Assembly: GCA_965228895.1 (NCBI GenBank)
Contig: OZ245842.1
Coordinates: 4,064,001-4,128,000, forward strand
Length of the DNA: 64,000 nucleotides
DNA from: Alphaproteobacteria bacterium
GTDB lineage: Bacteria; Pseudomonadota; Alphaproteobacteria; SP197
Direction: 5' to 3'
Made by a program: the position numbers and the translations under genes
The notes under the pieces: model-generated
Databases searched by the model: none
What the model was told of the DNA's origin: nothing
Seen by the model: the letters and a program-made list of their open reading frames with translations, nothing else
In this document: positions 5,155-32,247 of the stretch, in pieces
How positions within the stretch are numbered: position 1 is the stretch's first letter
Layout of the letters: the number at the start of each line of letters is the position of its first letter

Positions 5155-5216
5155 AATGAAACGTCAAAAGGCGGTCGTTGAAATGTGATGCCACCGATCG
5201 GCGGTAACGCATAACA

Positions 5217-5290: not shown

Positions 5291-5357
5291 CTCCGTATGA
5301 TCTAATTACGATGGTCGTCGAAGGCGATCAAGGCATCCAAGGACCTATTGAACTGCC

Positions 5358-5750: not shown

Positions 5751-5841
5751 TCCGCTTGCCGCCCACCGGCGTGTGGGCTAGAACGCCGCGCCCGACAGCG
5801 CCTGGCTTTGGCAGGCGCGGTGTCGGCGAAAGGACGGTACC

Positions 5842-6453: not shown

Positions 6454-6549
6454 GCCAGCATTGAGGCTGACCGATAGCGGCCTTGCCAGTCCCGGTCGCG
6501 ACAGCCACGATGACGGCGCCTTGATCATGAACGCAGGAACACCCTTCAG

Positions 6550-7995: not shown

Positions 7996-7999
7996 CACC

Positions 8000-9157: not shown

Positions 9158-9178
9158 TTGTAGGCGTTGCGATCTCGG

Positions 9179-9251
9179 CACCAGCCCACTCCCCCACCCG
9201 GCCACCCATGACAGCATCCTCGGGGTGGCCGGGTGGGGGAGCGGGCTGGTG
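9179..9251. repeat. Long GC-rich inverted repeat (REP-like hairpin) between convergent genes
   Basis: Arms CACCAGCCCACTCCCCCACCCGGCCACCC (9179-9207) and 9223-9251 are reverse complements at 28/29 nt, with a 15-nt loop. Confidence 0.85.
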
Positions 9252-9275
9252 ATGCCGGCCGGCGAGAAAGCTCCA

Positions 9276-15175: not shown

Positions 15176-18100
15176 ATGAGCGTTGCGCCTGAAGCCGGTC
15201 GCTGGCAATTCTGGATCGACCGGGGCGGCACGTTCACCGACGTTGTCGCCCAACGTCCGGACGGCGACCTGATCACCCACAAACTGCTGTCGGAGAACCC
15301 GGAGCGTTATGCCGACGCGGCCCTGCAGGGTATTCGCGACATCCTGGGTATCGACACCGGCGCTGTGATCCCGACAGACGCCATCGACGCGGTCAAGATG
15401 GGCACGACCGTCGCGACCAACGCGCTTCTGGAACGCAAGGGCGACCGGACCTTGCTTGCCATCAGCCGTGGCTTCCACGACGCCCTGCGCATCGCCTATC
15501 AAAACCGGCCCGACATCTTTGCGCGCCATATCATCCTCCCCGATTTGCTTTACGAGCGCGTGGTCGAGGTCGACGAACGGATCGACGCCCACGGCGACGT
15601 GGTCACGTCACTGGACCGTGATGCCGCGCGGTCCAGCCTGCAGCAGGCCTATGACGACGGCATTCGTGCCATCGCCATCGTCCTGATGCACGGCTATCGG
15701 CATGCCGCACACGAGAGAGAAGTGGCCGAGATCGCGCGCGACATCGGCTTCACGCAGATCTCGACATCGCACGCGACGACACCGCTGATGAAACTGGTGA
15801 GCCGCGGCGACACGACCGTGGTCGACGCCTATCTCTCGCCCATCCTGCGCCGCTATATCGACCGGGTGTCGTCGGAGCTGGGCGATACCCGCCTGCTCTT
15901 CATGCAGTCCAATGGCGGCCTGGTCGATGCCTTCCGCTTCCAGGGCAAGGACGCCATCCTGTCAGGGCCCGCGGGCGGTGTCGTTGGTGCGGTCAGAACC
16001 AGCGAAATGGCGGGGTTCGAGCGCATTATCGGCTTCGACATGGGCGGCACATCGACCGACGTCTCCCACTACAACGGCGTCTTCGAGCGCACCAGCGACA
16101 CCGAGATCGGCGGTGTTCGCATGCGCGCGCCGATGATGATGATCAAGACGGTCGCGGCCGGCGGCGGCTCGATCCTCTATTTCGACGGCCAGCGGCTGCG
16201 TGTCGGCCCCCAATCGGCCGGCGCCGATCCCGGCCCGGCGTGTTACCGGCGCGGCGGTCCGCTGGCAATCACCGACGCCAACGTGATGACCGGCAAGATC
16301 CTGCCCGACCTCTTCCCGAACGTTTTCGGGCCAGAAGGCGACCGGCCGCTCGATGCCGAGGCGGTCACAAATGCCTTCGAGACGCTGACCGCCGAGATCA
16401 ACGCCGCGTCGTCCGACACCAAGACACCGCAGGAGGTCGCCGACGGTTTTCTGATGATCGCGGTCGAGAACATGGCGCGCGCCATCAAGGAAATCTCGGT
16501 GCAGCGCGGTTACGCGATCTCTGACTACGCGCTCTGCTGTTTTGGCGGTGCCGCAGGGCAACACGCCTGCCTGGTCGCCGACGCGCTCGGCATGACGACG
16601 GTCTTCCTGCATCCTTTCGCAGGCGTTCTGTCGGCCTATGGCATGGGCCTGGCCGAACTGCGCGTCATCCATCAGGCGCCGGTCAACGACGGCCTGGACG
16701 ACGCCGTGATGCCCCATCTGGCCGAAACCATCGGCAAGCTGGAGCAGCAGGGCCGGGACGAACTGGAAAGCCAAGGCGTCGATCCCGCCGACATCACCGT
16801 CGCCGCGACGTTGCAAGTCCGTTATGACGGCACCGACAGCACGCTCGAGATCAACTATGGCGACCTAGCGACCATCAAGGAAGGCTTCGAAACGGCGCAT
16901 CGCCTGCGTTACGGTTTCGCAGCGCCCGACAAACCGCTCATCGTCGAGTCCCTTGCTGTCGAGACGATCGGCCAGGGCTCTGATGTGCGCGAGACGGTGG
17001 CGCCCAGCGCCGCGGGCGATCAGGCTGAAGCCGCGCAGCGTACGTCGATGTTCACGGCGGGCGCCGCCCACGACACCCCGGTCTTCCGGCGCGACGACCT
17101 GAAGCCCGGCCACCGCATCGCCGGTCCCGCCATCGTCGCGGAGGCCAACAGCACCACGGTGGTCGAGCCGGGCTGGACGCTTGAGGTGACAGACCACGAT
17201 CATCTTGTGATCAACCGAACGGAAGCGCGACCGGTCCAACATGCGATCGGCACCGAGGCCGACCCGATCATGTTGGAGGTTTTCAACAACCTCTTCATGT
17301 CGATCGCCGAACAGATGGGCCGGACGCTGGAGAACACCGCGTTCTCCGTCAACATGAAGGAACGGCTCGACTTTTCCTGCGCCATCTTCGACGGCGACGG
17401 CGAACTGATCGCCAACGCGCCGCACATGCCGGTGCATCTGGGTTCCATGGGCGAGACGGTGCGCGCGATCAACGCGTCACGGCGTGGCATCATGAAACCG
17501 GGCGACGTTTACGCCCACAACGCGCCCTATAACGGCGGCACCCACCTGCCCGATGTCACGATCGTGACGCCGGTGTTCGACGATGACGGGACGACCTTGC
17601 TGTTCTTCGTCGCCTCGCGCGGCCACCACGCGGACATCGGCGGCCTGACGCCAGGCTCCATGCCGCCCAACAGCCACACTGTCGAGGAAGAAGGCATTCT
17701 GTTCGACGATGTGGAGATCGTCGCCGAGGGACGCTTCCTGGAAGACGAGATCCGCCAGTTGCTGGGTTCCGGCCCCTACCCCTCCCGAAACGCCGATCAA
17801 AACATCGCCGACCTGAAAGCCCAGATCGCGTCGTGCGAAAAGGGCGTCCAGGAGCTCCATCGCATGGTCGCGCAGTTCTCATTGCCCGTGGTCCAGGCCT
17901 ATATGGGACACGTCCAGGACAACGCGGAGGAATCCGTCAGGCGCGTGATCGATGTCCTCAAGGACGGTCACTTCCGCTATCAGCTCGATAACGGCAGCGC
18001 GATCGAAGTGACGATCACGATCGACAGCCAGGCGCGCCGCGCACGTATCGACTTCGCGGGCACCTCGCCGCAACTGACCAGCAACTTCAATGCGCCCAGC

Positions 18101-18787
18101 GCGGTCGCCATGGCGGCCGTGCTCTATGTCTTCCGCAGCCTGGTCGATGACGACATACCGCTCAACGCCGGCTGTCTGAAGCCGATCGATATCGTGATCC
18201 CGCCGCATTCCATGCTGTCACCGGAGTATCCGGCGGCCGTCGTCGCCGGCAATGTCGAGACGTCGCAATGCATTGTCGACACGCTCTATGGCGCGCTCGG
18301 CGCCATGGCGGGGTCTCAGGGCACCATGAACAACCTGACCTTCGGCAACGCGCGCTACCAATACTACGAGACGATCTGCGGCGGGTCGGGCGCAGGCCCG
18401 GACTTCGACGGCACCGATGCCGTCCATACGCACATGACGAACTCCCGACTGACCGATCCGGAAGTGCTGGAATGGCGATTCCCCGTCCTGTTGGACGACT
18501 TCGCCATACGCCACGGCAGCGGCGGCGCCGGCGCGCACAAGGGCGGCGACGGCGTCAGACGGCGGCTGATCTTCCGCGAGGCCATGACGGCAGCGATCTT
18601 GTCGAACCACCGCCGCATCGCGCCGTTCGGCTTTGCCGGCGGGACCGACGCGTCAACCGGCCTCAATCGGGTCGAACGGGCCGACGGCAGTGTCGAACCG
18701 TTGGATGGCGCCGATCAGGCGGAGTTGGAACCTGGCGACGCGCTGGTGATCGAAACGCCCGGCGGCGGCGGTTACGGGGCGCCATGA
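15176..18787 (+). CDS. 5-oxoprolinase / hydantoinase A-B fusion
   Basis: [71 protein letters not shown]. Confidence 0.93.
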
Positions 18788-20055
18788 ACGACGCGCCATC
18801 GATCCGGAAAATCCTGATCGCGCTTGCGGCGCTGATCCTGGCAACCGCCATTTTGAACATCGCGAACGGCGCGATGTTCACGCTGATCGGCATCAGGCTC
18901 GCCAACGAGTTGTCGACCGGCTTGGTCGGTCTCATCACATCCGGCCACTTTATTGGCCTTTTGGCAGGCTCGATCACCGCCACCGGGATCATCGTACGGG
19001 TCGGCCACATCCGCGCCTTCACCGTGTTCGCTGCCGTCGCGGCGTGCGCCATCCTGTTGATGGGGCTTATCTTTTCGGTCCCCACCTGGTTCGTCTTCCG
19101 GTTCATCATCGGTTACTGCATGGCCGGACTCTTCATGGTGCTGGAGAGCTGGTTCAACGACCGGGCGACCAACGAGACCCGGGGACGCATTTTTGCGTCG
19201 TACCTGGTCGCGACATCCGGCGCCTTCGCCGTCGGACCGCTGTTGATCAACCTGGGCGACCCCATGAAGTACGCCCTGTTCGCCATGACGGCGATCTTGT
19301 TCAACATCTGCTTGCTGCCGATCGCCTTGACGCGTGAAGGCAATCCCACGATCGCCAAGGAAGGCCGGTTGTCGCTTAAGGAACTGATCGCGATATCGCC
19401 GCTTGGCGTGTTCGGCTGCTTCGCCGCGGGCCTGGCCAACAGCGCGGTCTACGGCCTGGGCGCGGTCTATGCCGACCTGATCGACCTTGAGCCTGCGGAA
19501 ATCTCGTTCATTTTCACTGCATTGATCGCCGGCGGCCTGGTCATGCAGTTGCCGATGGGCTGGCTGTCGGACCGTTTTGACCGGCGCACGGCGCTGATGA
19601 CGCTCACGGTGTCCGCCGTTGTTGCCGCCGGCCTTATCGTCGCATTTGGCGCTCATTCGTTCACGGCGCTGATCGTCCTGATCTTCATCTACGGCGGCGT
19701 GGCCGGTCCGATTTATGGCCTCTGCGTCGCCCAGACCAACGACTATGTCGATCGCGATCAGTTCGTCGCCGCCAGCAGCGGTTTGCTGATCGTCTATTCG
19801 ATCGGCGCCATTGCCGGTCCGAACATCGCGTCCTGGGTGATGGACTTGTTCGGCCCCTGGAGCCTGTGGCTCTATGTCGGCGTTGTCCTGCTTTGCCTCA
19901 GCGGTCTGGTCATGTATCGCAAGAAACGACGCGCGCCCCTGCCGGTCGAAGACCAGGGTGCCTATGTGCCGAGTGCGGTCGAATCACTGGCGACGGCCGA
20001 GATCGACCCGCGTGCCGCGCCGCCTCACCAACCGGCCAAAGACGGCGGAACGTGA
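18784..20055 (+). CDS. MFS transporter (YcaD-like)
   Basis: About 12 TM helices, [13 protein letters not shown]...[16 protein letters not shown] 18784 overlaps the oxoprolinase stop. Confidence 0.88.
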
Positions 20056-20245
20056 AGGGAACGCCCCGCCAACTCCTTGATTCTTAACGACTTACGGTCC
20101 TGGTGTAAATTGGCAACACGGTGGCCGTTAGATCACGGTCACAGGTGGTTCAAGTGGACGTGAGGCGCCGGGCTATGCTATCCGACCATTCGTTCACCAA
20201 TGGATCTCCACTGGTGGCGTGGGATCGTGTGGCGCCTGAGGCGGC

Positions 20246-21118
20246 ATGAAGCGCGATCCTGAAAATCGAGCGTCCGTGGTTGTCAGGGCAGTTGTCTTGG
20301 GCTTTTCAGGTTTCGCGGCACGACTACTACGACTTGCGATCTCAACCGGCGGCGCTATCACGCTTGTTCTGGGGATGGCCGCTTGCGCGACGCCGCCGGA
20401 AGATCCGGTTGCGCGTCAGGCGTTTGAGGAAACCAACGATCCTCTGGAACCGCTGAACCGCTACATCTTCGACGTCAATCTTGCGATCGACGAGCTGGTC
20501 CTGACGCCGATTTCGACCATGTACGTCGAGGGTGTTCCGGAACCCTACCGCAACGGGGTCAGAAACTTTCTCCAGAACCTCAGCATGCCGATCACGATCC
20601 TGAACAGCGCGCTTCAAGGAGACGGAGAGAACACGGTCGATGCTTCGGTCTCGTTTTTCATCAACACGACTGCCGGTCTTGGTGGCATCTTCGATATACC
20701 CGGCAACTTCGATGAGGAACCGCGCCGCGAAGACTTTGGTCAGACACTTGCTGTCTGGGGCGCCGAACCCGGCCCCTATCTGGTTCTGCCTCTTATCGGC
20801 CCTTCGGATGTGCGCGATACGGTCGGCCTGGGCGTCGACATCGCCACCGACCCGACAACCTATGTCTTTTCGCCAGCCTTCAACTACGTGACGACCGGCG
20901 TGACCGCGGTTCAGTTCCGCGCCGATCAGCGGGTCGAATACGAGAATTTGAAGCGCACATCGGTTGACTTCTACGCGACGCTGCGTTCTCTCTACCGTCA
21001 GATTCGCCAGCAACAGATCAACAACGGCAATCTCGATACATCGACACTGGATTATGAACTGTCGGGCGTTGATGACTTCGATACCACTGACGATAGCGAC
21101 TCTGCGGAAGCACCGTGA
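20246..21118 (+). CDS. mlaA: VacJ/MlaA phospholipid transport lipoprotein
   Basis: Lipobox MAAC, NDPLEPLNR, INTTAGLGG, EDFGQTL, GPYLVLP-x-x-GPS-x-x-RD. Confidence 0.93.
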   Translation: MKRDPENRASVVVRAVVLGFSGFAARLLRLAISTGGAITLVLGMAACATPPEDPVARQAFEETNDPLEPLNRYIFDVNLAIDELVLTPISTMYVEGVPEPYRNGVRNFLQNLSMPITILNSALQGDGENTVDASVSFFINTTAGLGGIFDIPGNFDEEPRREDFGQTLAVWGAEPGPYLVLPLIGPSDVRDTVGLGVDIATDPTTYVFSPAFNYVTTGVTAVQFRADQRVEYENLKRTSVDFYATLRSLYRQIRQQQINNGNLDTSTLDYELSGVDDFDTTDDSDSAEAP

Positions 21119-21732
21119 TTGAACGCCGCCACATCATCAGATCTGGAGTTGGCCTGGTCGCGTTGACCGCCGCGCCATCCGTGGCGCTGGCTGATCAAGT
21201 CGGTGACGCCGAGTCATTCATCGAAGATCGCGGCAACAAGCTGCTCGACATCCTCGGCATGGCGCCGGGCGATGCGCGGCGCAGCGCCTTTCGCGACTGG
21301 CTGAACGGTTCGTTCAACTTGACGCTGATCGGCAAGCTTGCGCTGGGCCCGTTTCTGCATCAGGCCACGCCGGACCAGCTCGAAGCCTACACCAAGGCGT
21401 TTAGCGACTATATCGTGGTGACCTACGAATCGCGTTTCGACACCTTCACCGGTTACAACCTGGAAGTCCTGAGGGGCCGGCCGGCAGGCAGCAAGGACAG
21501 CATTGTCCAAACGCTGATTTCTTATGGAAACGACACGTTCCACGTTGATTTCCGCGTCCGCCAGGACACAGGCGACGAATTGGATGTTATCGACGTCATG
21601 GTACAGAACGTGTCGATGCTGAAGACCCAGCAGGACGAGTTCCGCTCTGTCATTCAGCGTAGCGGTCTGGAGGGCCTGATCGACGGCCTGAAGAAACAGA
21701 CCGCCGACATTGAAGCGGACGCCCAAAGCTAG
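21115..21732 (+). CDS. mlaC: MlaC/Ttg2D periplasmic phospholipid-binding protein
   Basis: Signal peptide with RR, C-terminal IDV-x-V-x-NVSML...EF-x-S motif, coupled to mlaA. Confidence 0.88.
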   Translation: MIERRHIIRSGVGLVALTAAPSVALADQVGDAESFIEDRGNKLLDILGMAPGDARRSAFRDWLNGSFNLTLIGKLALGPFLHQATPDQLEAYTKAFSDYIVVTYESRFDTFTGYNLEVLRGRPAGSKDSIVQTLISYGNDTFHVDFRVRQDTGDELDVIDVMVQNVSMLKTQQDEFRSVIQRSGLEGLIDGLKKQTADIEADAQS

Positions 21733-21755
21733 ATCTTTCCATCGTGATGTGGTCG

Positions 21756-23129
21756 CTAGGGCGTGAGCCAGCCGCGCGCCTGTTGCTCGCGCACCAAATC
21801 TGAACGCTTTGCACCGAACGCTATGGCCTCGCCAAGGGTCGTTACGCCCTGCGCCGCCAGCGCATCGACCAGGCGGATATAGAGCTCGGCGGTCACCAGC
21901 GCGTCGCCCAACGCGGTGTGTCGGCCTTCGATCGTGATGCCGAATTCTTCGGCCAGGCCATCAAGAGACAAGTCCTTACGGGCCGGATCAAGGGCTGCGG
22001 CCAACAACAACGTGTCGATGATCGACGGCGGATGCCATGACGACCCGATGCGTTCGACCTCATGGACAAGCACAGTCGCATCAAAGCCGATGTTGTGGCC
22101 GACCACCACCAGATCCTCCAGCGATGTTTCGATCGCCGGCCAGCGTTCGGCAAAGTCCGGCGCGCCGGACACCATCGCATCGGTAATGCCATGGACCGCC
22201 ACCGACCGCTTGGGAATAACGACGCCGGGATTGACCAGCAGATCCTGGGTCAGGGCCCGGTAAACCTGTGTGCCGTGCACGCGAACCGAACCGTATGACA
22301 AGACGCGATCGTGCTTTGCGTTAAGGCCCGTCGTTTCCGTGTCGATCACAGCGACCGAGAGATCGGCGAGCGGCGTGTCAGGACCGGCCGTCGCTGCAGG
22401 CGGTGGCAGGTCGTGCAGATCAAGCGCCAGTTCGACATGACGGCCGGCCGAGGGGCCTGTCTCCTGGAACCAGAGGACGGCGCCGCCGTGACGGACCAGG
22501 GGCACATAGCGGGCCCGGACCAAACGCCCGCCGATGATCTGAAGCTCGACATCTACACCGTTTTCGTTTGACGCTGCCTTGGCCCGCGCCTCGGCCATGG
22601 TGTGGCGGGTGAAAACGTCGTAGATGGTGGTGCCGGTGTTGGTGCCGTGTTCGCCCAGGGTGTCGCGGGCGGCGTCGTTGATGACGCTGACCAGCCCATT
22701 CTCGGTGATCACCAGAAGGCCACCGCCGACCGCTGCGACCACGTCGCGCAAACGCTCATCGGGTGCGGCGCGCTCGGTAGCCAGGCGGCCAATGTATTGA
22801 CCGAGCGTGTTGTGAAGTGCCGCCAGTTCCCCACCCGCCTGATCACCTTCGGCCGGCAGAACCCGGTGTGCGGGATCGCTCAACAAAACGGCGACCGCAC
22901 CGCGCAACCGCTCGACTTCGGTAAAGTGCCGTCGCACCCAGACAACGCCCGTGCCGCACAGGACGACAGCAAAGACAGCGACAAAAAAGAGGGCGGCCTG
23001 CGGCACGCCGATAAAGTCGAGCGCCAGGCTCAGGACGATCAGCAAGCCAGCCGCGGCAAAACAAGCGATCAGCCGGGCTGCCGTACTGTGCGGCCCTTGG
23101 TTCACGTCTGCCCCATCAAAAAACGTCAC
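21756..23129 (-). CDS. Membrane-anchored DEDDh 3'-5' exonuclease (DnaQ-like) with PAS-like middle domain
   Basis: Two N-terminal TM segments, a PAS-like region, and Exo I VIDTETTG, Exo II GHNIGFD, Exo III HTALGDA motifs. Confidence 0.85.
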   Translation of the reverse strand: MTFFDGADVNQGPHSTAARLIACFAAAGLLIVLSLALDFIGVPQAALFFVAVFAVVLCGTGVVWVRRHFTEVERLRGAVAVLLSDPAHRVLPAEGDQAGGELAALHNTLGQYIGRLATERAAPDERLRDVVAAVGGGLLVITENGLVSVINDAARDTLGEHGTNTGTTIYDVFTRHTMAEARAKAASNENGVDVELQIIGGRLVRARYVPLVRHGGAVLWFQETGPSAGRHVELALDLHDLPPPAATAGPDTPLADLSVAVIDTETTGLNAKHDRVLSYGSVRVHGTQVYRALTQDLLVNPGVVIPKRSVAVHGITDAMVSGAPDFAERWPAIETSLEDLVVVGHNIGFDATVLVHEVERIGSSWHPPSIIDTLLLAAALDPARKDLSLDGLAEEFGITIEGRHTALGDALVTAELYIRLVDALAAQGVTTLGEAIAFGAKRSDLVREQQARGWLTP

Positions 23130-24585
23130 CGGTCAGGTCAGCCTTGATCCGTCCGCGCAAACGGTCAACCGCCTTGAGCCGGTCGACCAGCATGTCGCGT
23201 TCGCGCTTGGTCAGCGTATGCGGGTCGACAAAATAGCTTACCTTGTTGCCGGCACGAAAATCCCTGATCTGCTGACGCAGGACGATATCGGTCAAGAGCC
23301 GATAGGCGGCGCTCAGGTAGTCTTGCTCGTCGGCGCCCAACACACCGATCTCGAGTAAGGCGTCCATGCGTTTGCGGGTCGATGTGTCGACGATGCCATG
23401 TTTCAGCGCCAACAGGCGCACGGGGGCGATCAACGGCAGCAGGCCCTGATGCTTCAGGTTCATTTTTCCCTTCAGGTCGCCGGAACGCACCGTCACGAAA
23501 CGGCCGAACCATCCAAGCGCCACATCGCCCTCCGCGTCATCGTGATACATGCTGCGCAGGAAGTGATGCTGGCGCGGCATCAAGGCTGCGATGAAACGGC
23601 GAAGCTCCTGAACGAAGTCCTGACGTCCGTAGACCGGACGAAAATCAAAGAAGATATCGGCCAAACGCGCCAGATTGAGGTTGTCGCGGCTCATCCACAG
23701 CTTCAGCTGCGCCTGCCACTGGCTACGTGTCTTGCGCCACAGCGGGTTGGTCGCCATGACGTTGCCGGGGCAATAGACAAACCCCAGTTCGTTCAGCATG
23801 TCGGTCATACGCGTCGCCAGTTCGATGAACCAGGCATCGATCGCGTTATGGTCATCGTCGGGATAGTCATCCAGGACGAAGCCGTTATCCTGATCGGGGA
23901 ACAGGAAACTCTCACCGCGCCCCGCCGAACCCATGACCAGAACCGCGAAGGCGACCGGCGGCTCGCCAAAACCGTCATCGCGCATCGTCTGTATGGAGAT
24001 GTCGACAGTACGGTGCATGACATCCAGGTTAATCTCGCTTAGCGCCTGTTGGATGTCGTCGGCATGCACGCCGTCAGCGAACAGCGTGTCGGCAATATCG
24101 ACCTGAGCCTGTTTGATCTTCTTCAGGCCCGCCACCGTGTCGTCGGCGGCGAGCATGTCGATCAGGGTCAGCGTCTGGCCGGCCGCGACTTCCAAGGCGT
24201 CTTCCAACCACAGCATGCCGACCGCGAACCCGGCATCGTCCAGCACCGGCATCTGATGCACGTTGGCGTGGCGCATCCGGACAATGGCCTGGTGCATGTT
24301 GTCGTGCGGATAGGTGCTCTTGATGGGCGCCGTCATCACCCGTTCAACGGGCCCGGTGCGGTCATCCATCAGCGCGATGCGGGTCACCACGTCCCGCTCG
24401 GTGAGCAGGCCGGTGGGCAGGCCGTGTTCATCGGCCACCAACAGGCAACTCGCGCCGTTTTTCGCCAACGACGCCACCGCGTCACCGATGCTGGTGGTTG
24501 CCGGCACGATCAGCGGATCGGTTTTCATACGATCGCTTACTTTGCGGCGAAAGATATCGATTTGTGATGGCGCTTGTCGGTTCAT
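23116..24585 (-). CDS. CBS-domain / DUF294 putative nucleotidyltransferase
   Basis: Tandem CBS domains (GLLTERD; MPVLD) followed by MGSAGRGE...PDQDNG, CPGNVMATNPLW, IFFDFR and a DUF294_C-like region (NLKHQG). Confidence 0.9.
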   Translation of the reverse strand: MNRQAPSQIDIFRRKVSDRMKTDPLIVPATTSIGDAVASLAKNGASCLLVADEHGLPTGLLTERDVVTRIALMDDRTGPVERVMTAPIKSTYPHDNMHQAIVRMRHANVHQMPVLDDAGFAVGMLWLEDALEVAAGQTLTLIDMLAADDTVAGLKKIKQAQVDIADTLFADGVHADDIQQALSEINLDVMHRTVDISIQTMRDDGFGEPPVAFAVLVMGSAGRGESFLFPDQDNGFVLDDYPDDDHNAIDAWFIELATRMTDMLNELGFVYCPGNVMATNPLWRKTRSQWQAQLKLWMSRDNLNLARLADIFFDFRPVYGRQDFVQELRRFIAALMPRQHHFLRSMYHDDAEGDVALGWFGRFVTVRSGDLKGKMNLKHQGLLPLIAPVRLLALKHGIVDTSTRKRMDALLEIGVLGADEQDYLSAAYRLLTDIVLRQQIRDFRAGNKVSYFVDPHTLTKRERDMLVDRLKAVDRLRGRIKADLTGDVF

Positions 24586-24888
24586 CGTCGATCAATGATA
24601 ACGCAGTGGCGGCAAGATGTTCTGATTTAGGACAGAATAAGTTCTCGTGATGAAAAAAGCTTTCACATGATAACGACTTATCGCCGGTGTGCAGATTGTG
24701 TGATTTGTCACGACCGCCCCACTTTGGTATAAACAATATGGGTTTGGGGGTGGCTTTTTCTCACTGACATTAAGATCAGGCTCAATCCGTCACCTCCTTA
24801 ACTGACGAATGTTGGGGCGCGAACGTTTGTCGCGCGCCGAACTTTCGTCGGTCTTTTTGCCTGGCGAGGCAGATAGGGGAGAAGTTCG

Positions 24889-26928
24889 GTGGAAGCAAAA
24901 GTCTATTGGCTCTTTGCGTTCGTGTTGCTGTACTGGTGCTACTGTATCTTCTGGGGCATCAAGAGTGCACGTACGGCCAAGACGGCAAGCGATTACTTTA
25001 TCGCAGGCCGCCGTCTGGGCATGTGGGTATTTGTTCTGGCGGCGACGGCGACGTCGTTCTCGGGCTGGACCTTCATGGGTCATCCCGGCCTGATTTATCG
25101 CGATGGCTTCCAGTACGCCTACGCGTCCTTCTACGCCATCACCATCCCGTTCACCGGCGTCATGTTCTTGAAGCGTCAGTGGATGCTCGGCAAACGCTTC
25201 GGCTATGTGACGCCGGGCGAAATGCTGTCGGACTATTTCCGCGGTGACGGCATACGCATTCTGACCGTTATTGTCGCCCTGCTCTTCTCGATTCCCTATC
25301 TGGGTGTCCAGCTTGGCGCCTCCGGGTTCTTGTTCTCGGTCCTGACCGACGGCGTCGTCGACAAGGACTTCGGCATGTGGATCCTGTCGCTGGTCGTCTT
25401 GATCTATGTTGCCTCCGGCGGCCTACGCGCTGTCGCCTATGTGGATACGCTGCAATGTATCCTGCTGGCGGTCGGCATCATGATCACGGGTGTCATCGCG
25501 CTCAATCTTGCCGGCGGCTGGGGCGCTCTCAACGAAGCTTACGGTGCGCTCGCCGCGACCGGCATCGGCAAATGGGGTGTGACGGAGGCTGGCCATAACG
25601 CCTACTTCGCCATACCCGGCGTCATCCAGTTCACCGCGGGCCTGGGTCAGGAGACGCCTGTCGGCGGCTTGTGGACCGGCGTCATGGTGCTGACCTACAT
25701 GTTTGCCCTGATGGGCATCCAGTCAGCGCCCGCCTTCACCATGTGGTCCTTCGGCAACACGAGCCCGAAGCCGTTCGCGCCGCAGCAGGTCTGGGCCTCG
25801 TCGTTCGCGATCGGCCTGATCCTGTTCTTCTTTACGGCGGTTCAGGGCATGGGCGCCAATGTGTTGGGCGCCAACGTTCCGGTAAACGACGAGAACCTGG
25901 CAATCTCGCAGGGTCTCAATCTGGAACTCGGCAACACCGACCCGGCGCTGATCCTGGGCCGGCCGTTGGCCGAGGATGAGATCATCACCACCACCGGTCA
26001 GATCATCATGGCCAAGCCGGACTCGCTGGTGCCGTTCTACTTCAACACCATCGGCGAATCGATGCCGTGGCTGGTCGGTATTCTGGCGGTCTGTGCTCTG
26101 GCGGCGATGCAGTCGACGGGTGCGGCTTACATGTCGACTGCCGGCGCGATGCTGACCCGTGACCTCTACAAGAAGTACCTGAACCCATCGGCATCCCATA
26201 CCCAGCAGAAGTTCCTGGGCCGTGTCGGTGTCGCGTTCATCGTGTTTGCCGCCCTGCTGGTGGCGACGTTCAGTTCCGATGCTCTTGTGCTCTTGGGCGG
26301 TCTGGCGGTCGCCTTCGGCTTCCAGATGTGGCCGTCGCTGGCGGCGGTGTGTTGGATTCCCTGGATCACCAAGGCTGGTGCGACGTGGGGCCTGGCCGTT
26401 GGCCTTCTGGCGGTCATCTTCACCGAGACCTTCGGTGCGACGATAGCCGGCTGGTTCGGTTTCGAACTGCCATGGGGCCGCTGGCCGTGGACCATCCACA
26501 GCGCCGGTTGGGGCATCTTGTTCAATGTCATTGTCGTGGTCCTGGTTTCCGCGGCGACGCAGAACAGCGAAGCCCGTGCCCACAGGGAGACCTATCACAG
26601 CTTCCTGCGTGAACATGCCGGCCTGTCGGAGAGCAAGCGCAAGCTGATCCCGACGGCATGGATCGTCACCATCGCGTGGCTGATCTTCGGCATCGGCCCG
26701 GGTGCCGTCATCGGCAACACCATCTTCGGTACGCCTAACGATGCCTCGACCTGGATCTTCGGCATTCCGTCGATCTGGGCCTGGCAGATCCTGTTCTGGA
26801 TCCTGGGCGTCGCGATGATGTGGTTCCTGGCCTACAAGATGGAAATGTCGACCGTGCCGGACAAGGAAGTCGAGTCGTTGACCGACGACATCGGCGACCT
26901 GGCTGCCGGCAAAGCCGCGGCCGACTAA
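24889..26928 (+). CDS. Sodium:solute symporter (SSS family)
   Basis: DYFIAGR, ATSFSGWTFMG-x-PG, GGLRAVAYVD, AAMQST and many TM helices. GTG start with GGGGAG RBS. Confidence 0.92.
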   Translation: MEAKVYWLFAFVLLYWCYCIFWGIKSARTAKTASDYFIAGRRLGMWVFVLAATATSFSGWTFMGHPGLIYRDGFQYAYASFYAITIPFTGVMFLKRQWMLGKRFGYVTPGEMLSDYFRGDGIRILTVIVALLFSIPYLGVQLGASGFLFSVLTDGVVDKDFGMWILSLVVLIYVASGGLRAVAYVDTLQCILLAVGIMITGVIALNLAGGWGALNEAYGALAATGIGKWGVTEAGHNAYFAIPGVIQFTAGLGQETPVGGLWTGVMVLTYMFALMGIQSAPAFTMWSFGNTSPKPFAPQQVWASSFAIGLILFFFTAVQGMGANVLGANVPVNDENLAISQGLNLELGNTDPALILGRPLAEDEIITTTGQIIMAKPDSLVPFYFNTIGESMPWLVGILAVCALAAMQSTGAAYMSTAGAMLTRDLYKKYLNPSASHTQQKFLGRVGVAFIVFAALLVATFSSDALVLLGGLAVAFGFQMWPSLAAVCWIPWITKAGATWGLAVGLLAVIFTETFGATIAGWFGFELPWGRWPWTIHSAGWGILFNVIVVVLVSAATQNSEARAHRETYHSFLREHAGLSESKRKLIPTAWIVTIAWLIFGIGPGAVIGNTIFGTPNDASTWIFGIPSIWAWQILFWILGVAMMWFLAYKMEMSTVPDKEVESLTDDIGDLAAGKAAAD

Positions 26929-26956
26929 CCGTCACAGCCCAGGATGTGGCAACATG

Positions 26957-26990
26957 CGGGGGAGGGCCTAGCCCTCCCCCGTTTTTCTTT
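26957..26990 (+). terminator. Rho-independent terminator after the SSS gene
   Basis: CGGGGGAGGGC-CTA-GCCCTCCCCCG followed by TTTTTCTTT. Confidence 0.85.
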
Positions 26991-27005
26991 GGTAGATAGT
27001 GTTTT

Positions 27006-27236
27006 ATGGCCGATCTAGCTTCGCCCGAGTTCGCGCCCTATTGGGCTATTCTTCTGGCCGTCGTGCTGTTCTTTCCGGTGCGGCAGCTGATCTGGGTGAT
27101 GTCCGTCAGACGCGCCGAACGCGACGGCAACGAAGATGAGGAACGCCGGCAATCGTTGCGCCGACGGGCAAGTTTCACCGCTGCCCTTCTGTGTTTCATC
27201 GTCGCCTTCCTCTACGCCAACACCTGGAATCCGTGA
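27006..27236 (+). CDS. Small two-TM membrane protein
   Basis: 76 aa, two hydrophobic segments flanking a charged loop, coding-like codon pattern. Confidence 0.7.
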   Translation: MADLASPEFAPYWAILLAVVLFFPVRQLIWVMSVRRAERDGNEDEERRQSLRRRASFTAALLCFIVAFLYANTWNP

Positions 27237-27249
27237 CACCTAGAACGGC

Positions 27250-27858
27250 ATGAACGAAGCAGTCCTCAGACGTTTCATTAAGATCACGATCGTGACGATC
27301 CTGGTCGGCGGTGTCGCCATCCTGGGCTATGACTGGTTCCAAAGTCAGGAACCCGGCGACTACTATGTGCGCGAGGGCGACATCCGCCTGAGTGACGGCA
27401 AGTTCGACGAAGCGCTGGTGAGTTTCGACAAGGCGCTTCAGGAAATGCCCGACCATCGCGGCGCCCTGATGGGCCGCGCCATCGTGTTCATTCAAACCGA
27501 ACGTTACGACGATGCCATCGTCGAACTCAACTACCTCATCGACTTTCTGAACCGGACCCTGGTCGAGGAGGACCTGACCGGCAAGGGAACATTGGCCGCC
27601 GCCCACGCCAACCTGGGCATCGTCTATGATCGGCTGGGCCGCTACGAGGAGGCGCTCGACGAATACGCCCGGGCGCTCAACACCGACGAAGAATCGGTGG
27701 AGGGGCCGGGTCTGGTGCAGAAGATTTTGCATGACGCCGACCCGTCGACGGTGCGCGACCGCGCCATCTATATCTACGAGCAGCTCCAGTTGCCCGAAGA
27801 CGAACGCCTGATGTCGGTCCCCGAGCTCGACGCCGAAGAACGCATGTACAAACCCTGA
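27250..27858 (+). CDS. Membrane-anchored tetratricopeptide repeat protein
   Basis: N-terminal TM then TPR-like units (GKFDEALVSFDKAL; AHANLGIVYDRLGRYEEALDEYARAL). Confidence 0.85.
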   Translation: MNEAVLRRFIKITIVTILVGGVAILGYDWFQSQEPGDYYVREGDIRLSDGKFDEALVSFDKALQEMPDHRGALMGRAIVFIQTERYDDAIVELNYLIDFLNRTLVEEDLTGKGTLAAAHANLGIVYDRLGRYEEALDEYARALNTDEESVEGPGLVQKILHDADPSTVRDRAIYIYEQLQLPEDERLMSVPELDAEERMYKP

Positions 27859-27866
27859 CGTCGGGT

Positions 27867-28067
27867 TCAGAACTCGACGACGCCCAGGACATCCTGCAAC
27901 AGGACAAGACAGAAGAAGACGGCGGCAATACAGCCGAACAGCTGATGCACGAAGTCGCCGTTGCCGTCCTCGTCGCGGAACCGTATGCCGCGCCAGGCGA
28001 TAAATGCGGTCACGGCCAGAAACAGAACGTTGAGGGGCATCTCCCACTCGCCGGCGGACTCAAACAT
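27867..28067 (-). CDS. Small two-TM membrane protein
   Basis: 66 aa with two hydrophobic helices, directly downstream of the 28074-28550 gene. Confidence 0.65.
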   Translation of the reverse strand: MFESAGEWEMPLNVLFLAVTAFIAWRGIRFRDEDGNGDFVHQLFGCIAAVFFCLVLLQDVLGVVEF

Positions 28068-28073
28068 GATGCC

Positions 28074-28550
28074 TCAATCGCTGGTTTGGCCTGACTGCAG
28101 GTCGTCGGATTCGAAGAACGGCGGCAAGACGGATGTCGCGCGTGTCTCCGGCGCCAGTTGCGCCAGGGCGAGGCTACCGGCCATGGCGAAGACAATCCAG
28201 AACACGGCCATACCGAAGCGGCGATAGCCCTGCGGCGGTGTGCGGTAGTAATCGCAGTCGTAGCGGTGAAAGCCCGGCTGGCTGTCATCCAGTTCGTCGC
28301 GCTCGTCGGCCTCGATGATGCTGCGTGCATAGTGGCGCGCCCAGATCGGCACCTCGCCTTTGAACATGTAACGCTCGAACAGCCCGTCGACCATGGATTC
28401 CGGCATCTCTTCGCCATGCCACGATGCATAGGCGAGCTGCAGCAATTGAAACTCGCCGATCTGCAGCAGGTTCGCCGCCTGCGCGACGTCACCACGATCG
28501 GACGGCTCCTCTTGGTCGGGACGCAGCAGCGTCTGGAAAAAACCAGCCAT
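28074..28550 (-). CDS. Hypothetical protein with C-terminal TM helix
   Basis: 158 aa ORF with protein-like composition (AANLLQIGEFQLLQLAY...PIWARHYAR) and a TM segment near the C-terminus. Confidence 0.7.
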   Translation of the reverse strand: MAGFFQTLLRPDQEEPSDRGDVAQAANLLQIGEFQLLQLAYASWHGEEMPESMVDGLFERYMFKGEVPIWARHYARSIIEADERDELDDSQPGFHRYDCDYYRTPPQGYRRFGMAVFWIVFAMAGSLALAQLAPETRATSVLPPFFESDDLQSGQTSD

Positions 28551-28615
28551 GGCCTATCATACCGCCGAATGGCCGGGCGGCGAATGCTACGATTTTGTGA
28601 TCGCGCACGTGTCGT

Positions 28616-29404
28616 TTAAGGGCGTCGTGCGTCGATATGGAGGTGCAAAGCGCCTCGCGCCTCCAGGGCTTCGGCGCGCAGGGCGCTCAGCTTCACCCGC
28701 ACGTTGAAATAGTCCTCACCCAGGGCCTCGCGCACATGACGGCCCTCGTCGCTGGTCGCGAAAGCGTGCTCGCGCCGCGCCACCTCGGCCGAATTGGCGG
28801 TGTGGTCCTTGATCGCCACGTCCACAAACCCGGCATCGGCCAGCGCTGCCTCATAGGCCGGCCGACCCTCATAGTGGAAACTCAGACCGAACGTCTTCAG
28901 CATACCCACCCAATCCGCGAACAGCGCGGCAGCTTTGCCATCGGCCTCGCCATCCAGAAAATCGGCGCACAGGAAGCGGCCACCGGGTTTTAGGACGCGG
29001 AAGACGTCGGCGAACAACGCCGGTTTGTCGGCGACATGGCAGATCACGTCCTTGGTAAAGACGATGTCGACAGAGCCGTCAGGCGCCGGCAGCGCACCGG
29101 GCACCATGTGCACGAAGTCTACGCGATCGCCCAGGCCGGCCTCCTGGGCCGCGACCGTGGCGCGTGCAATGGAGTCGGCCTCGATGTCGACGCCGATCAC
29201 GTGCTTGGCGCCGAAGGCATCGGCCAGCATCAAGGCCGCGCCGCCAATGCCGCAGCCAAGATCCAGGACGTCGAGCCCGGCGATGTCGACGCCTTCCAGA
29301 ATCTCCACCACCTCCGGTGCGGCGCCCGGTGACAGGAAACCCTTGCCATAGACCATCTGCATCCCGGCGATCACACGGTCACTGTACTGGCTCTGAAACG
29401 ACAT
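28616..29404 (-). CDS. Class I SAM-dependent methyltransferase (phosphoethanolamine / sarcosine N-methyltransferase-like)
   Basis: YGKGFLSPG, VLDLGCGIGG, FRVLKPGG. Probable start ATG 29404. Confidence 0.85.
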   Translation of the reverse strand: MSFQSQYSDRVIAGMQMVYGKGFLSPGAAPEVVEILEGVDIAGLDVLDLGCGIGGAALMLADAFGAKHVIGVDIEADSIARATVAAQEAGLGDRVDFVHMVPGALPAPDGSVDIVFTKDVICHVADKPALFADVFRVLKPGGRFLCADFLDGEADGKAAALFADWVGMLKTFGLSFHYEGRPAYEAALADAGFVDVAIKDHTANSAEVARREHAFATSDEGRHVREALGEDYFNVRVKLSALRAEALEARGALHLHIDARRP

Positions 29405-29484
29405 ACCCGCTGTTCTCCCGACGCCATGCATGACTCTGATCTGAGACGCGCTAATCTATCGCCCAATCCAGGGAGGCTCATACC

Positions 29485-31290
29485 ATGGTGATGTCACGTC
29501 CGGAAATCGTTGGCACCTTCGGTGTCGTCACCTCGACACACTGGCTGGCCAGCGCCGCCGGCATGGCGATGCTTGAGAAAGGCGGCAACGCGTTCGATGC
29601 CGCCGTCGCCGTGGGCTGCGTTCTGCACATTGTTGAACCCGAACAGAACGGTCCGGGCGGCGATTGCCCGCTCATCCTGTGGAGCGCGACGAAGGAGAAG
29701 GTCGAGGTGATCTGCGGTCAGGGCGTGGCACCCCGGGCGATCTCCAGCGGTGCGTTGCGCGATATGGGCCTCGACGTCATGCCCGGCGTCGGTCACCTGC
29801 CGGCGGTCGTTCCCGGCAGCTTCGGCGCCTGGATGCGCCTGCTGCACGACTATGGCTCGCTCACGGTACGTGACGTCCTGGAACCGGCGATAACGGCCGC
29901 GCGCGACGGTTTTCTGATGAAACCCGGTGTCGCCAACGTCATCGCACGGTCCGGCGGCTTCATGAAGCAGTACTGGCCGAGCTCGGCGGAGGTCTACCTG
30001 GTCAACGGCGAAGCGCCGGAGGCCGGCGGCCTCTACAGCCTGCCCGCCCAGGGCGACACCTATGCCCGTATCGTTGAAGAGGCGGAAGCCGCAGGCAGCG
30101 ACCGTGAAGCGCAGGTCGAAGCGGCGCGGCGCGCCTGGTACGAGGGGTTTGTCGCCGAAGCCATCGACCAGTTCATGCGCGAACCGGTGATGGACACCTC
30201 CGGCGAAAGCCACAGCGGCTACATGACCGGCGACGATTTGGCCGGGTGGCGCGCCGAGGTCGAGGAGCCCGTCACCTACGACTACGGCGACTACAAAGTC
30301 TGCAAGGCCGGGCCCTGGGCGCAGAGCCCGATCTTCCTGCAGCAATTGGCACTGCTCAAAGACTATGACCTTCAGGCCATGGATCCGGTGGGACCGGAGT
30401 TCATCCATACGGTCCAGGAATGCGCTAAACTCGCGATCGCCGACCGCGAGGCCTTCTATGGCGATCCGAAATTTGTCGACGTGCCGCTCGCCGAACTCCT
30501 GTCCGACGACTACAACGCCGAGCGGCGCAAGCTGGTCGGCGAGGACGCCCGTCTCGACCTGCCGCCGGGCCACATCGACGGTTATGGCGGCGAGGTGCGG
30601 CTGAGGGCGCACGGCTCGACCAACGTCGCCCATCACGAGATGACCATGGAAGGTGAAGGCGGTGAACAGAAGAACCCTGACTGGGCGCAGTTCATCGCCG
30701 AAAACCACGGCGATACCTGCCATTTCGACATCATCGACCGCTGGGGCAACATGATTTCGGGCACGCCGAGCGGCGGCTGGCTTTCCGGCTCGCCGGTGGT
30801 CCCCGGTCTGGGTTTCCCCGTGTCCGTGCGCGGCCAGATGTTCTGGCTCGACGACGATCATCCCAACGGCCTGGCGCCCGGCAAACGTCCGCGCACCACG
30901 CTGACACCGACGCTGGCGCTGCACAACGACGAGCCCTATCTGGTGTTTGGCACACCCGGCGGCGACCAGCAGGATCAGTGGGCGCTGCACGCCTTCCTGC
31001 GCCATGTGCACCATGGCATGAACCTGCAGGAAGCCTGCGACGCCCCCTCGTTCTACACCGACCACGTGCCCAGCTCGTTCTATCCGCGCGAATGGCTGCC
31101 GGGTCATCTGGCCGTCGAAAGCGACCTGCCACGCGGTACCATGGCCGAGCTCGACCGCCGTGGGCACAAGCTGGAGATCTTCGGCAAGTGGGGCCACTAC
31201 AACTCGATCACCATGGCGTCCAAACGCGGCAAGACGCTGCGCGCCGGCGCCAGCCCCCGCCGCGAGCAATGCTATGCGATAGGCCGGTGA
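29485..31290 (+). CDS. Gamma-glutamyltransferase family (Ntn hydrolase), cytoplasmic
   Basis: GGNAFDAAVA, DTCH nucleophile Thr, PGKRPRTTLTP, GTPGGDQQDQ. No signal peptide. Confidence 0.9.
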   Translation: MVMSRPEIVGTFGVVTSTHWLASAAGMAMLEKGGNAFDAAVAVGCVLHIVEPEQNGPGGDCPLILWSATKEKVEVICGQGVAPRAISSGALRDMGLDVMPGVGHLPAVVPGSFGAWMRLLHDYGSLTVRDVLEPAITAARDGFLMKPGVANVIARSGGFMKQYWPSSAEVYLVNGEAPEAGGLYSLPAQGDTYARIVEEAEAAGSDREAQVEAARRAWYEGFVAEAIDQFMREPVMDTSGESHSGYMTGDDLAGWRAEVEEPVTYDYGDYKVCKAGPWAQSPIFLQQLALLKDYDLQAMDPVGPEFIHTVQECAKLAIADREAFYGDPKFVDVPLAELLSDDYNAERRKLVGEDARLDLPPGHIDGYGGEVRLRAHGSTNVAHHEMTMEGEGGEQKNPDWAQFIAENHGDTCHFDIIDRWGNMISGTPSGGWLSGSPVVPGLGFPVSVRGQMFWLDDDHPNGLAPGKRPRTTLTPTLALHNDEPYLVFGTPGGDQQDQWALHAFLRHVHHGMNLQEACDAPSFYTDHVPSSFYPREWLPGHLAVESDLPRGTMAELDRRGHKLEIFGKWGHYNSITMASKRGKTLRAGASPRREQCYAIGR

Positions 31291-31326
31291 AACGCGGCCG
31301 CGCGTAGGAAACGGCGCGCGCCGCCG

Positions 31327-32247
31327 TTGAAAGACATGGCCAAGCGTTTCTTCAACCTGCTGGCGGCGGCCTTGACGCTGGCTGCTGCACTCCTGCGGGC
31401 AGGGCTGGCCCAGGCCGACACTCTGGAGCATGGCGGCCTCGAACGTGCCTTTGAGGTCTATGTGCCCGACGGCATCGCCATGCCGGCACCGGCCGTCGTG
31501 TTGCTCCACGGCGGTGGTGGTTCGGGTAAGCAGTTGCGCCGGCACACCGACTTCAACGATCTGGCCGACGAGGCCGGCTTTATCGTCATCTATCCCGAAG
31601 GCATCGACGGCCACTGGAACGACGGACGCGACGATCCCTGGCTCGACAGTCAGGCGGCGGCGCAACACGACGACGTCGGTTTCATTACCGCCATGCTGGA
31701 CCGTCTTATCGCTGACGGCCTGATCGACCCACAGCGCGTCGGCGTTGCCGGCATATCGAACGGCGGCATGATGACGCAGCGCCTGGCCTGCGAAACACCC
31801 GAACGGTTCATCGGTTTCGCGGTCGTCGCCGCGAACATCGCGGTCGGCCAGGAATGCCCTGGCGGTAGACCAGCGCCGATGCTGTTCATCCATGGCAGCA
31901 ACGATCGGCTGGTTCCCTATGACGGCGGTCCCATCGGCCTTCCCGGCGGCAAGGCGCGCGGCACCGCCTGGTCGGTACGGGATACGCTGGATGCCTGGGC
32001 GGCGCGAAACCGCTGTACCGGCCGGGTGCTTAGCGCCCGTATCGATGACCGGCCGCTGGACGGCACCGCCGTCGACGTCATCGACTACACGGGCTGCACA
32101 GTTCCGCTACGCCATATCCTGATCGACGGCGGCGGCCACACCTGGCCTGGCACCGGAGCACGGCTGGTCAACCTGATCACCGGACGCTCGAGCCGCGAGA
32201 TCGACGGAAACGTCGCCATCTGGGCGTTCTTCGCCGCCCAGCCCTGA
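31327..32247 (+). CDS. Secreted esterase, LpqC / PHB-depolymerase-like family
   Basis: Signal peptide, LHGGGG, DDVGF, GISNGG lipase box, HG-x-x-D, GGGHTWPG. Alternative start ATG 31336. Confidence 0.82.
   Translation: MKDMAKRFFNLLAAALTLAAALLRAGLAQADTLEHGGLERAFEVYVPDGIAMPAPAVVLLHGGGGSGKQLRRHTDFNDLADEAGFIVIYPEGIDGHWNDGRDDPWLDSQAAAQHDDVGFITAMLDRLIADGLIDPQRVGVAGISNGGMMTQRLACETPERFIGFAVVAANIAVGQECPGGRPAPMLFIHGSNDRLVPYDGGPIGLPGGKARGTAWSVRDTLDAWAARNRCTGRVLSARIDDRPLDGTAVDVIDYTGCTVPLRHILIDGGGHTWPGTGARLVNLITGRSSREIDGNVAIWAFFAAQP

Follow-up and report, generated by a model that had tools for sequence, protein, structure and literature searches.

Genes and protein domains at the locus

We analysed a 64-kb stretch of an alphaproteobacterial contig (OZ245842.1, positions 4,064,001 to 4,128,000; hereafter the window) that carries a gene pair encoding a DUF294-type nucleotidyltransferase (NT) and a DEDDh exonuclease (EXO) beside a gene for an SSS-family symporter. 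The module is real and conserved. It represents one variant of a gene pair that is known but uncharacterised, and it stands apart by an NT with no cNMP-binding domain, a transmembrane-PAS exonuclease, and a symporter of a third SSS subfamily. The EXO gene (P0001; 21756–23129, minus strand) encodes a protein of 457 amino acids (aa), in which a two-helix transmembrane hairpin and long helices are followed by a PAS-like domain and the DEDDh exonuclease domain. The NT gene (P0002; 23116–24585, minus strand) encodes 489 aa with the architecture CBS-CBS-DUF294-DUF294_C. The symporter gene (P0003; 24889–26928, plus strand) encodes 679 aa and belongs to an uncharacterised subfamily. NT and EXO share 14 nt (23116–23129), suggesting that they are carried on one transcript, and an intergenic region of 303 bp (24586–24888) separates NT from the divergent symporter gene. 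Each of the three genes is present in one copy in the window. A preliminary description, made from the DNA letters alone, had placed two overlapping genes here, divergent from an SSS transporter; the open reading frames (ORFs) fill the span it gave exactly, and the symporter lies across the 303 bp on the opposite strand.

The CBS pair of NT (24193–24540, minus strand; residues 16–131) is N-terminal to the nucleotidyltransferase domain and is recognized by Pfam as two stretches (CBS x2, E 3e-16, 59.9 bits). In the AlphaFold2 (AF2) model of NT (predicted local distance difference test score, pLDDT, 88.2; predicted template-modelling score 0.83), this pair matches AMP-, ATP-, and SAM-bound CBS pairs in a fold search and is presumed to be an adenine-nucleotide sensor. 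The DUF294 catalytic domain (PF03445; 23683–24099, minus strand; residues 163–301; E 4e-39, 134.2 bits against a cut-off of 21) has an intact GSxGRxE/DxD site, which reads G219-S-A-G-R-G-E225 ... D231-Q-D233. Residues G219, S220, G222, R223, E225, D231, Q232, and D233 are invariant among 76 NT homologs, and the earlier assignment of two CBS domains and an intact nucleotidyltransferase motif is thereby borne out. The helical "substrate-binding" domain DUF294_C (PF10335; 23140–23565, minus strand; residues 341–482; E 8e-37, 126.7 bits against a cut-off of 22.5) follows at the C-terminus. It is of the KNTase_C/GlnD-GlnE type and has been grouped with the C-terminal domains of GlnD and GlnE (PMC3710099). 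Pfam gives no match to the cNMP-binding domain (PF00027) in P0002. This domain occurs in the Pseudomonas and Rhodobacterales form and is present in the TM1040 relative. A search for NT relatives yielded 2021 matches at E <= 1e-3 among 8000 scored candidates; those listed are mostly ~486-aa CBS-CBS-DUF294 proteins from Rhodospirillales-like metagenome-assembled genomes, and forms of this length with no cNMP-binding domain predominate among them.

Outside the CBS pair, GlnE halves are the only proteins among the listed Foldseek matches of NT in the PDB. The alignment with GlnE 1v4a extends over 397 columns (E 6.5e-8, TM-scores 0.48/0.55), and that with 3k7d_B over 400 columns (TM-score ~0.5), at an identity of only 14–15%. 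The NCBIfam model for GlnE (PRK14109) matches NT weakly (E 5.6e-7; 28 bits against a cut-off of 625), so that NT is not a member of this equivalog. Searching the PDB with the sequence of P0002 returned 21 matches, CBS proteins only, and the best 60 of 148 matches to an NT profile were likewise all CBS proteins; by these searches there is no solved DUF294 structure. No usable match came from the ESM Atlas when the NT half served as query and DUF294 families were skipped. P0002 matches none of the PADLOC models, those for CD-NTases included, and P0001 matches only generic DEDDh models; a defence system of the CBASS type, with a CD-NTase and a nuclease, was rejected on these grounds.

EXO begins with a hydrophobic hairpin (22932–23093, minus strand; approximately residues 13–66), a putative membrane anchor. 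Its AF2 model (pLDDT 88.1) contains helices at residues 13–40, 44–84, and 100–133, of which the first two are hydrophobic in their first parts, and the hydropathy segments cover residues 14–32 and 33–51. The PAS-like domain (22467–22721, minus strand; residues 137–221) forms an alpha/beta unit in the model. The Pfam match to PAS in P0001 is weak (residues 126–220, E 3e-3, under the Pfam cut-off), and several EXO homologs carry precomputed PAS families. The exonuclease domain (21777–22358, minus strand; residues 258–451 in the AF2 model; Pfam RNase_T at residues 261–417, E 1.5e-29) contains D263, E265, D350, H404, and D409. Across 63 exonuclease domains of all length classes, the first four of these residues are conserved in 63/63 and D409 in 62/63. 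The model and these residues agree with the proposed order of two transmembrane helices, a PAS-like domain, and an intact DEDDh nuclease.

We counted hydrophobic 19-mers in 66 EXO-domain ORFs, that of the window included, whose start codons are longest-ORF calls and hence uncertain. At least two such segments precede the exonuclease domain in 57 of them, one in 2, and none in 7. Among Rhodobacterales exonucleases, N-terminal hydrophobic segments are found in the long ones (469–695 aa) and are absent from the short forms of 222, 237, and 264 aa. In 120 listed homologs, 73–100% of the full transmembrane-PAS-exonuclease query is covered. Judged by sequence, a membrane anchor on the EXO partner thus appears to be the rule, and not an oddity, in most alphaproteobacterial versions.

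The structural matches of the EXO domain are PolC-exo (2p1j, the best at E 1e-22), DinG, epsilon, ExoX, RNase T, and TREX1. EXO shares with DnaQ and PolC the DEDDh fold and all of the catalytic residues. However, P0001 scores far under every dnaQ/epsilon equivalog cut-off (TIGR01406, 81.8 against 222.7; PRK05711, 77.1 against 196) and, unlike soluble single-domain DnaQ, carries a 250-residue N-terminal membrane/PAS extension. The hairpin and the PAS-like sensor stand where a part for polymerase binding would be expected. EXO is also linked to a signalling nucleotidyltransferase and not to a replicase. We reject a replication proofreader on these scores and domains; the preliminary description had already considered a membrane-tethered nuclease implausible in that role.

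P0003 belongs to the SSF family (Pfam, E 3e-30). It is 21–26% identical to ActP-type and DUF4212-type SSS proteins, scores 85.9 against a cut-off of 320.75 for VC_2705-type SSS proteins (TIGR03648), and has no match to an ActP model. No small DUF485- or DUF4212-like ORF is present upstream of the symporter gene, in 24586–24888. Instead, a gene for a small protein of 76 aa with two transmembrane segments, sm76 (27006–27236, plus strand), lies downstream and is kept in 41 related loci; it may be a small symporter subunit analogous to DUF485 or DUF4212. The symporter substrate is probably a short monocarboxylate. A RamB-like ScfR gene adjoins the SSS gene in 12 related loci, which we count as monocarboxylate context.

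Conservation of the pair and its fusion into one chain

We identified 465 NT relatives in species-representative genomes and analysed the best 80 loci, in which ORFs were called and clustered and the three window proteins were located by tblastn. EXO is present in 62 of the 80 loci and an SSS ortholog in 58; both are present in 49 and neither in 9. Where at least 6 kb of flanking sequence is available on either side (47 loci), EXO is found in 39, SSS in 37, and both in 33. Identities to the window proteins are 61–85% for the symporter, 45–51% for NT, and 36–47% for EXO, the symporter being the most conserved of the three. The raw counts overstate independence, since the loci are related and share unrelated syntenic genes (ABC-F, MlaA, and MlaC). 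The linkage of NT and EXO nevertheless persists while orientation and spacing vary, the two genes being codirectional, convergent, or separated by kinase genes. EXO is window-like in 14 loci, where it is codirectional, directly after NT, and ~416–517 aa long. Convergent forms have ~281–376 or ~480–517 aa, and a PAS-rich form of ~700 aa is found inside a receiver-EXO-kinase operon several kb from NT.

In 31 loci the genes around the EXO partner include those for a histidine kinase of the SSS type and for a receiver protein. The kinase has ~12 hydrophobic segments followed by HisKA and HATPase_c, an architecture that appears to resemble the SSS-domain kinases CrbS and MxtR; Pfam SSF has no match in it at E <= 1e-3. 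No kinase, receiver, or ScfR gene of this kind is found within the 64-kb window.

Two arrangements of these regulators were observed. In L004, L007, L010, L019, L027, L031, L042, L060, L066, and L071, a cassette of RamB-like ScfR, receiver, kinase, NT, and EXO is divergent from the symporter, at about 2300–9400 in each locus; the window is devoid of the whole regulator set. In L011 (10041–15539) and L035, a single-domain receiver, a ~700-aa PAS-rich exonuclease with two transmembrane segments, and the SSS-like kinase form one operon, which places the exonuclease within a two-component system. The same set also occurs as convergent copies in L013, L017, L030, and others.

Annotated plasmids and chromids extend the association to more distant relatives. 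Of 65 such records that match P0002, 10 were examined: H1, H6, and H17, chosen by eye, and every third row (H4, H7, H10, H13, H16, H19, and H22). The gene immediately upstream of NT encodes an SSS protein in 8 of the 10, in the order acs-DUF485-ActP or DUF4212-SSS. An RNase_T exonuclease is encoded at most three genes downstream of NT in 9 of the 10, one of them annotated as "hypothetical" and confirmed by Pfam; the Skermanella locus is the only one with no exonuclease gene within this distance. Records with the pair and an SSS gene come from Rhodobacterales, Hyphomicrobiales, and Azospirillaceae, and their symporters belong to two SSS subfamilies other than that of the window. Given the low identity of P0003 to these proteins, we count three SSS subfamilies beside the pair, and each comes with a small membrane protein of its own. 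Three annotated relatives that we compared (Paracoccus, Vibrio, and Ruegeria) are 25–29% identical to P0002. The recurrence in the 80 related loci and in these distant records argues that the NT-EXO-SSS arrangement is not a chance juxtaposition. The gene-neighbourhood check called for in the preliminary description therefore ties the pair to SSS symporters of three subfamilies. In annotated loci the pair does stand beside ActP with DUF485, in line with the ActP-type symporters named in that description, but the symporter of the window is not of the ActP type.

In Rhodobacterales and Skermanella loci, a gene that separates NT from the exonuclease, or that follows NT, encodes a protein of 162–193 aa whose N-terminus has hydrophobic helices and which Pfam does not match (L090, 7400–7918; L087, 7405–7923; L089, 7274–7771; L086, 7427–7915; L081, 8437–9018). 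The window does not contain this possible additional component.

The two activities also occur in a single polypeptide. A search for longer NT relatives retrieved P0246, in which RNase_T-CBS-CBS-DUF294-DUF294_C form one chain. With this protein as query against 1.84 billion representatives, 26,594 representative proteins match at E <= 1e-3, and the best 150 matches were classified. EXO and NT are combined in one chain in 76 of them, always in the order EXO-CBS-NT and with a median length of 705 aa; both domains are near-complete, with all four motifs found by pattern, in 46 of these 76. The remainder of the 150 comprises 59 proteins with NT only and 15 with EXO only. Two further proteins, P0247 and P0248 (1213 and 1222 aa), have the order PHP-Cache-PAS-PAS-CBS-CBS-DUF294-DUF294_C. 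In these a PHP phosphoesterase, of an unrelated fold, takes the position of the DEDDh domain and an extracytoplasmic Cache sensor is added; this version is rarer than the DEDDh fusions. Among the annotated plasmids we found no fused NT protein, only two-gene versions.

The fusions, and the replacement of DEDDh by PHP, give the unit the appearance of a synthetase/hydrolase pair. This layout is shared with GlnD, Rel/SpoT, and GGDEF-EAL proteins, and is also that of polymerases with proofreaders; the combination of a Pol-beta nucleotidyltransferase with a DEDDh or PHP hydrolase echoes PolX in particular. That NT and EXO work as a functional unit, as previously suggested, is supported by their linkage in 62 of 80 loci, by the 76 fusions, and by the PHP stand-in in two clusters. 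Prediction of a complex between NT and EXO residues 120–457 scored 0.00 in both runs, which counts neither for nor against binding.

A tentative writer/eraser switch and its alternatives

The pair of the window resembles the COG2905/DUF294 plus RNase_T operon of Pseudomonas (PP_0354/PP_0353, PA3233/PA3232, and pflu5625; the CrbS/R, or MxtR/ErdR, regulon). Both consist of the same two Pfam families, NT then EXO, and share a context of SSS monocarboxylate symporters and of acetate, pyruvate, and propionate metabolism; in loci related to the window, an SSS-like histidine kinase and a receiver flank the pair. In contrast to the Pseudomonas operon, the NT of the window has no cNMP-binding domain, EXO bears a PAS-like domain behind a membrane hairpin (we take the P. 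putida exonuclease to be soluble), the symporter is of a third SSS subfamily, its small membrane protein comes after and not before it, and the regulator genes are absent.

In P. putida, pp_0354 and pp_0353 are described as an operon under MxtR/ErdR (PMC9927547). A preprint of September 2026 ranks PP_0353-0354 among the most strongly MxtR/ErdR-dependent genes, reports a cNMP-binding domain in the P. putida NT, and calls the function of the pair "unclear" (10.64898/2026.09.07.749794). PA3232-PA3235 are reported as co-induced, ~16-fold on propionate (PMC9765439). Growth on 20 mM acetate or succinate is given as unaffected in both the delta-pp_0353 and the delta-pp_0354 strain. On pyruvate, growth is impaired in delta-pp_0353, which lacks the exonuclease, and restored by complementation, whereas delta-pp_0354, which lacks the transferase, is unimpaired; delta-actP-I has the same pyruvate defect as delta-pp_0353 (PMC9927547). 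In a fitness data set, the "RNase T domain proteins" Sama_1525 and Psest_0349 are cofit with the adjacent DUF4212/SSS symporter on lactate or D-alanine (10.1101/072470).

An eraser mutant that behaves like the transporter mutant, together with a writer mutant that behaves like the wild type, is the pattern expected from an inhibitory writer and an activating eraser, as far as these distant relatives can serve as a guide. Polarity of the pp_0354 deletion on pp_0353 would make the writer epistatic and lead to the same conclusion. The writer/eraser logic put forward in the preliminary description is therefore in keeping with the pyruvate phenotypes. Taken together, the GlnE-like fold, the fusions, the membrane placement, and the mutant pattern in P. 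putida point to a split GlnD-like switch, with nucleotidyltransferase and hydrolase on separate chains. That NT and EXO act in this way, as antagonistic writer and eraser on the neighbouring SSS system, is the best-supported reading, which we propose tentatively and at rather less than even odds.

In the writer/eraser scheme, the CBS-gated NT would transfer a nucleoside monophosphate (NMP) onto a hydroxyl group, either in a protein of the transport complex or in a regulator that is bound to this complex. The mark, possibly a short NMP chain such as MntA places on HepT, would lower uptake, making NT the inhibitory writer. The membrane-anchored DEDDh enzyme would hydrolyse the nucleotide phosphodiester, releasing 5'-NMP and restoring uptake, as the activating eraser. 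The two proteins would then form a split analogue of GlnD, which joins a nucleotidyltransferase to an HD hydrolase.

The parallel with GlnD and GlnE, which attach and remove uridylyl and adenylyl groups, respectively, in nitrogen control, lies in the Pol-beta-type nucleotidyltransferase and helical C-terminal domain, in GlnE giving the best match to a solved fold apart from the CBS pair, and in the pairing of writer and eraser activities under small-molecule sensor domains. It differs in that the remover would be a DEDDh (or PHP) hydrolase, and not an HD domain or a second nucleotidyltransferase domain, and in that the sensors are CBS and PAS and not ACT. A Pol-beta nucleotidyltransferase can oligo-AMPylate a protein: in the toxin-antitoxin system MntA/HepT (MNT-HEPN), a small enzyme of this class, paired with a helical domain of the HEPN/KNTase_C clan, is reported to place short AMP chains on a protein tyrosine (PMC7641770, PMC13000451). 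The 3'-5' phosphodiester bonds of such chains could be trimmed by a 3'-5' exonuclease. The pair of the window has no toxin-antitoxin context, RNase motif, or PADLOC match for NT, and the parallel is mechanistic only.

The more specific proposal, that the exonuclease anchored beside the symporter is a protein de-nucleotidylylase, is doubtful. It would trim or remove the NMP or oligo-NMP marks set by the CBS-gated, GlnE-like transferase on the transport complex, and short-carboxylate uptake would thereby be switched post-translationally.

Several points weigh against an antagonistic pair acting on a protein. We know of DEDDh enzymes only as hydrolases of nucleic acids or oligonucleotides, and the solved structures most closely related to EXO are those of the DNA exonucleases PolC-exo, DinG, and epsilon. 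A polymerase-plus-exonuclease reading accounts equally well for the NT+DEDDh and NT+PHP fusions. No target residue has been identified, and literature searches found no published biochemistry for the DUF294-exonuclease pair, as the preliminary description had held. Among the 47 loci with full flanks, 10 have no SSS gene and 8 no EXO, and 2 of the 10 annotated loci have no adjacent SSS gene. The P. putida proteins are distant relatives of the pair in the window. Growth on propionate is reported as reduced in both delta-PP_0353 and delta-PP_0354 (10.64898/2026.09.07.749794), which is not an antagonistic pattern, and a pflu5625 mutant is described as having no phenotype (PMC5715377).

An alternative that we consider unlikely is a switch at RNA 3' ends, in which NT would tail a specific RNA with untemplated nucleotides and the DEDDh enzyme would trim them, thereby setting symporter expression; the RNA could for instance be a small RNA, the mRNA of the symporter, or a tRNA-like end. 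The turnover of tRNA ends by the CCA-adding enzyme and RNase T offers a parallel. The nearest sequence and fold relatives of EXO all act on nucleic-acid 3' ends, and NT is a member of the Pol-beta superfamily. The fusions recall PolX, in which a Pol-beta domain and a PHP exonuclease are combined (PMC9226535, PMC2665239), and the authors of the P. putida study themselves speculated on mRNA degradation (PMC9927547). However, the best fold matches of NT outside the CBS pair are GlnE domains and not poly(A) or CCA polymerases, and its C-terminal domain is of the GlnD/GlnE/KNTase_C type. The two-helix anchor found in 57 of 66 partners has no obvious role in RNA trimming, and an Rfam scan of 20000–30000 detected no structured RNA.

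A messenger cycle is improbable in our view. Here NT would make a diffusible nucleotide, linear or cyclic, or a nucleotidylated metabolite, and the DEDDh or PHP enzyme would degrade it, with PAS, CBS, and cNMP-binding domains tuning both activities as in GGDEF/EAL or Rel/SpoT proteins. A synthetase and a hydrolase in one chain with sensor domains are the usual layout for messenger turnover, and the position of the EXO partner among kinase and receiver genes in 31 loci fits such signalling. The DEDDh enzyme oligoribonuclease degrades dinucleotides, and the PHP domain of P0247 presumably resembles TrpH-like nucleotide phosphoesterases. The large helical DUF294_C and the GlnE-like fold point instead to a macromolecular acceptor, NT has no PADLOC match even among CD-NTase models, and the neighbourhoods of the related loci have no conserved gene for a dedicated receptor.

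The absence of any joint mechanism, with EXO a general DNA/RNA exonuclease whose position is inherited synteny of no regulatory meaning, is very improbable and was already disfavoured: the 80 loci do come from related lineages that have other syntenic genes (such as ABC-F, MlaA, and MlaC) in common, and the single-mutant phenotypes are reported as mild (PMC9927547, PMC5715377), but the linkage outlasts changes in orientation and spacing, the pair stands beside unrelated SSS subfamilies in other orders, fusion proteins are common, and the exonuclease mutant has the phenotype of the transporter mutant (PMC9927547).

The DUF294/COG2905-exonuclease pair is widespread and belongs to the regulon for acetate, pyruvate, and propionate uptake of well-studied bacteria. 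To this picture we add the predicted membrane anchoring of EXO, the NT-EXO fusions with their PHP replacement, and the observation that the published phenotypes of single mutants agree with a writer that inhibits and an eraser that activates. Should the target be a protein, nucleotidylylation would have a new eraser chemistry and transporters a new form of gating. Were the de-nucleotidylylase proposal to hold, a nuclease fold would constitute a new class of eraser, and the occurrence of the pair across many Proteobacteria would be explained.

Regulatory sequences and neighbouring genes

The intergenic region between NT and the symporter gene has no Rfam match (20000–30000 scanned at E <= 0.1), and a promoter scan found no sigma-70-like site in 21400–28200. 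In 38 orthologous SSS-NT spacers, we found no common motif besides the ribosome-binding site of the symporter, AGGGGAGA, which k-mer counts locate in ~26 of the 38. A 9-mer is present twice in the spacer of the window, which is within chance expectation.

Downstream of the symporter gene, a strong terminator-like hairpin (26956–26982, plus strand) of 12 pairs, 10 of them G-C, is followed by a T-run. It is placed between the symporter stop codon and the start codon of sm76, where it could attenuate the expression of the genes that follow or uncouple it. A gene for a membrane-anchored TPR protein of 202 aa (27250–27858, plus strand) follows sm76 and is kept in 37 related loci. Both sm76 and the TPR protein are candidate parts of the module only. 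Genes for a methyltransferase and then a gamma-glutamyltranspeptidase lie beyond the TPR gene.

On the other side, genes for a fused 5-oxoprolinase/hydantoinase, an MFS transporter, MlaA, and MlaC are encoded on the plus strand. The genes for the MlaA lipoprotein and the MlaC-like protein (20246–21732, plus strand) directly adjoin the EXO gene. Since they recur in many related loci, they appear to reflect synteny within the clade and not to belong to the module.

A 799-aa ORF with no Pfam match (29494–31893, minus strand) is antisense to the gamma-glutamyltranspeptidase gene (29485–31290, plus strand); it is most likely a spurious high-GC ORF, like several ORF clusters in the locus comparison. 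The hydantoinase/5-oxoprolinase has 1203 aa, with its A and B parts in a single ORF (15176–18787, plus strand). The MFS transporter ORF (18268–20055, plus strand) overlaps it by ~500 nt, so that the true MFS start is probably later than listed. Together with the gamma-glutamyltranspeptidase, 10 kb away on the other side, the oxoprolinase and the MFS transporter suggest a possible glutathione/5-oxoproline theme.

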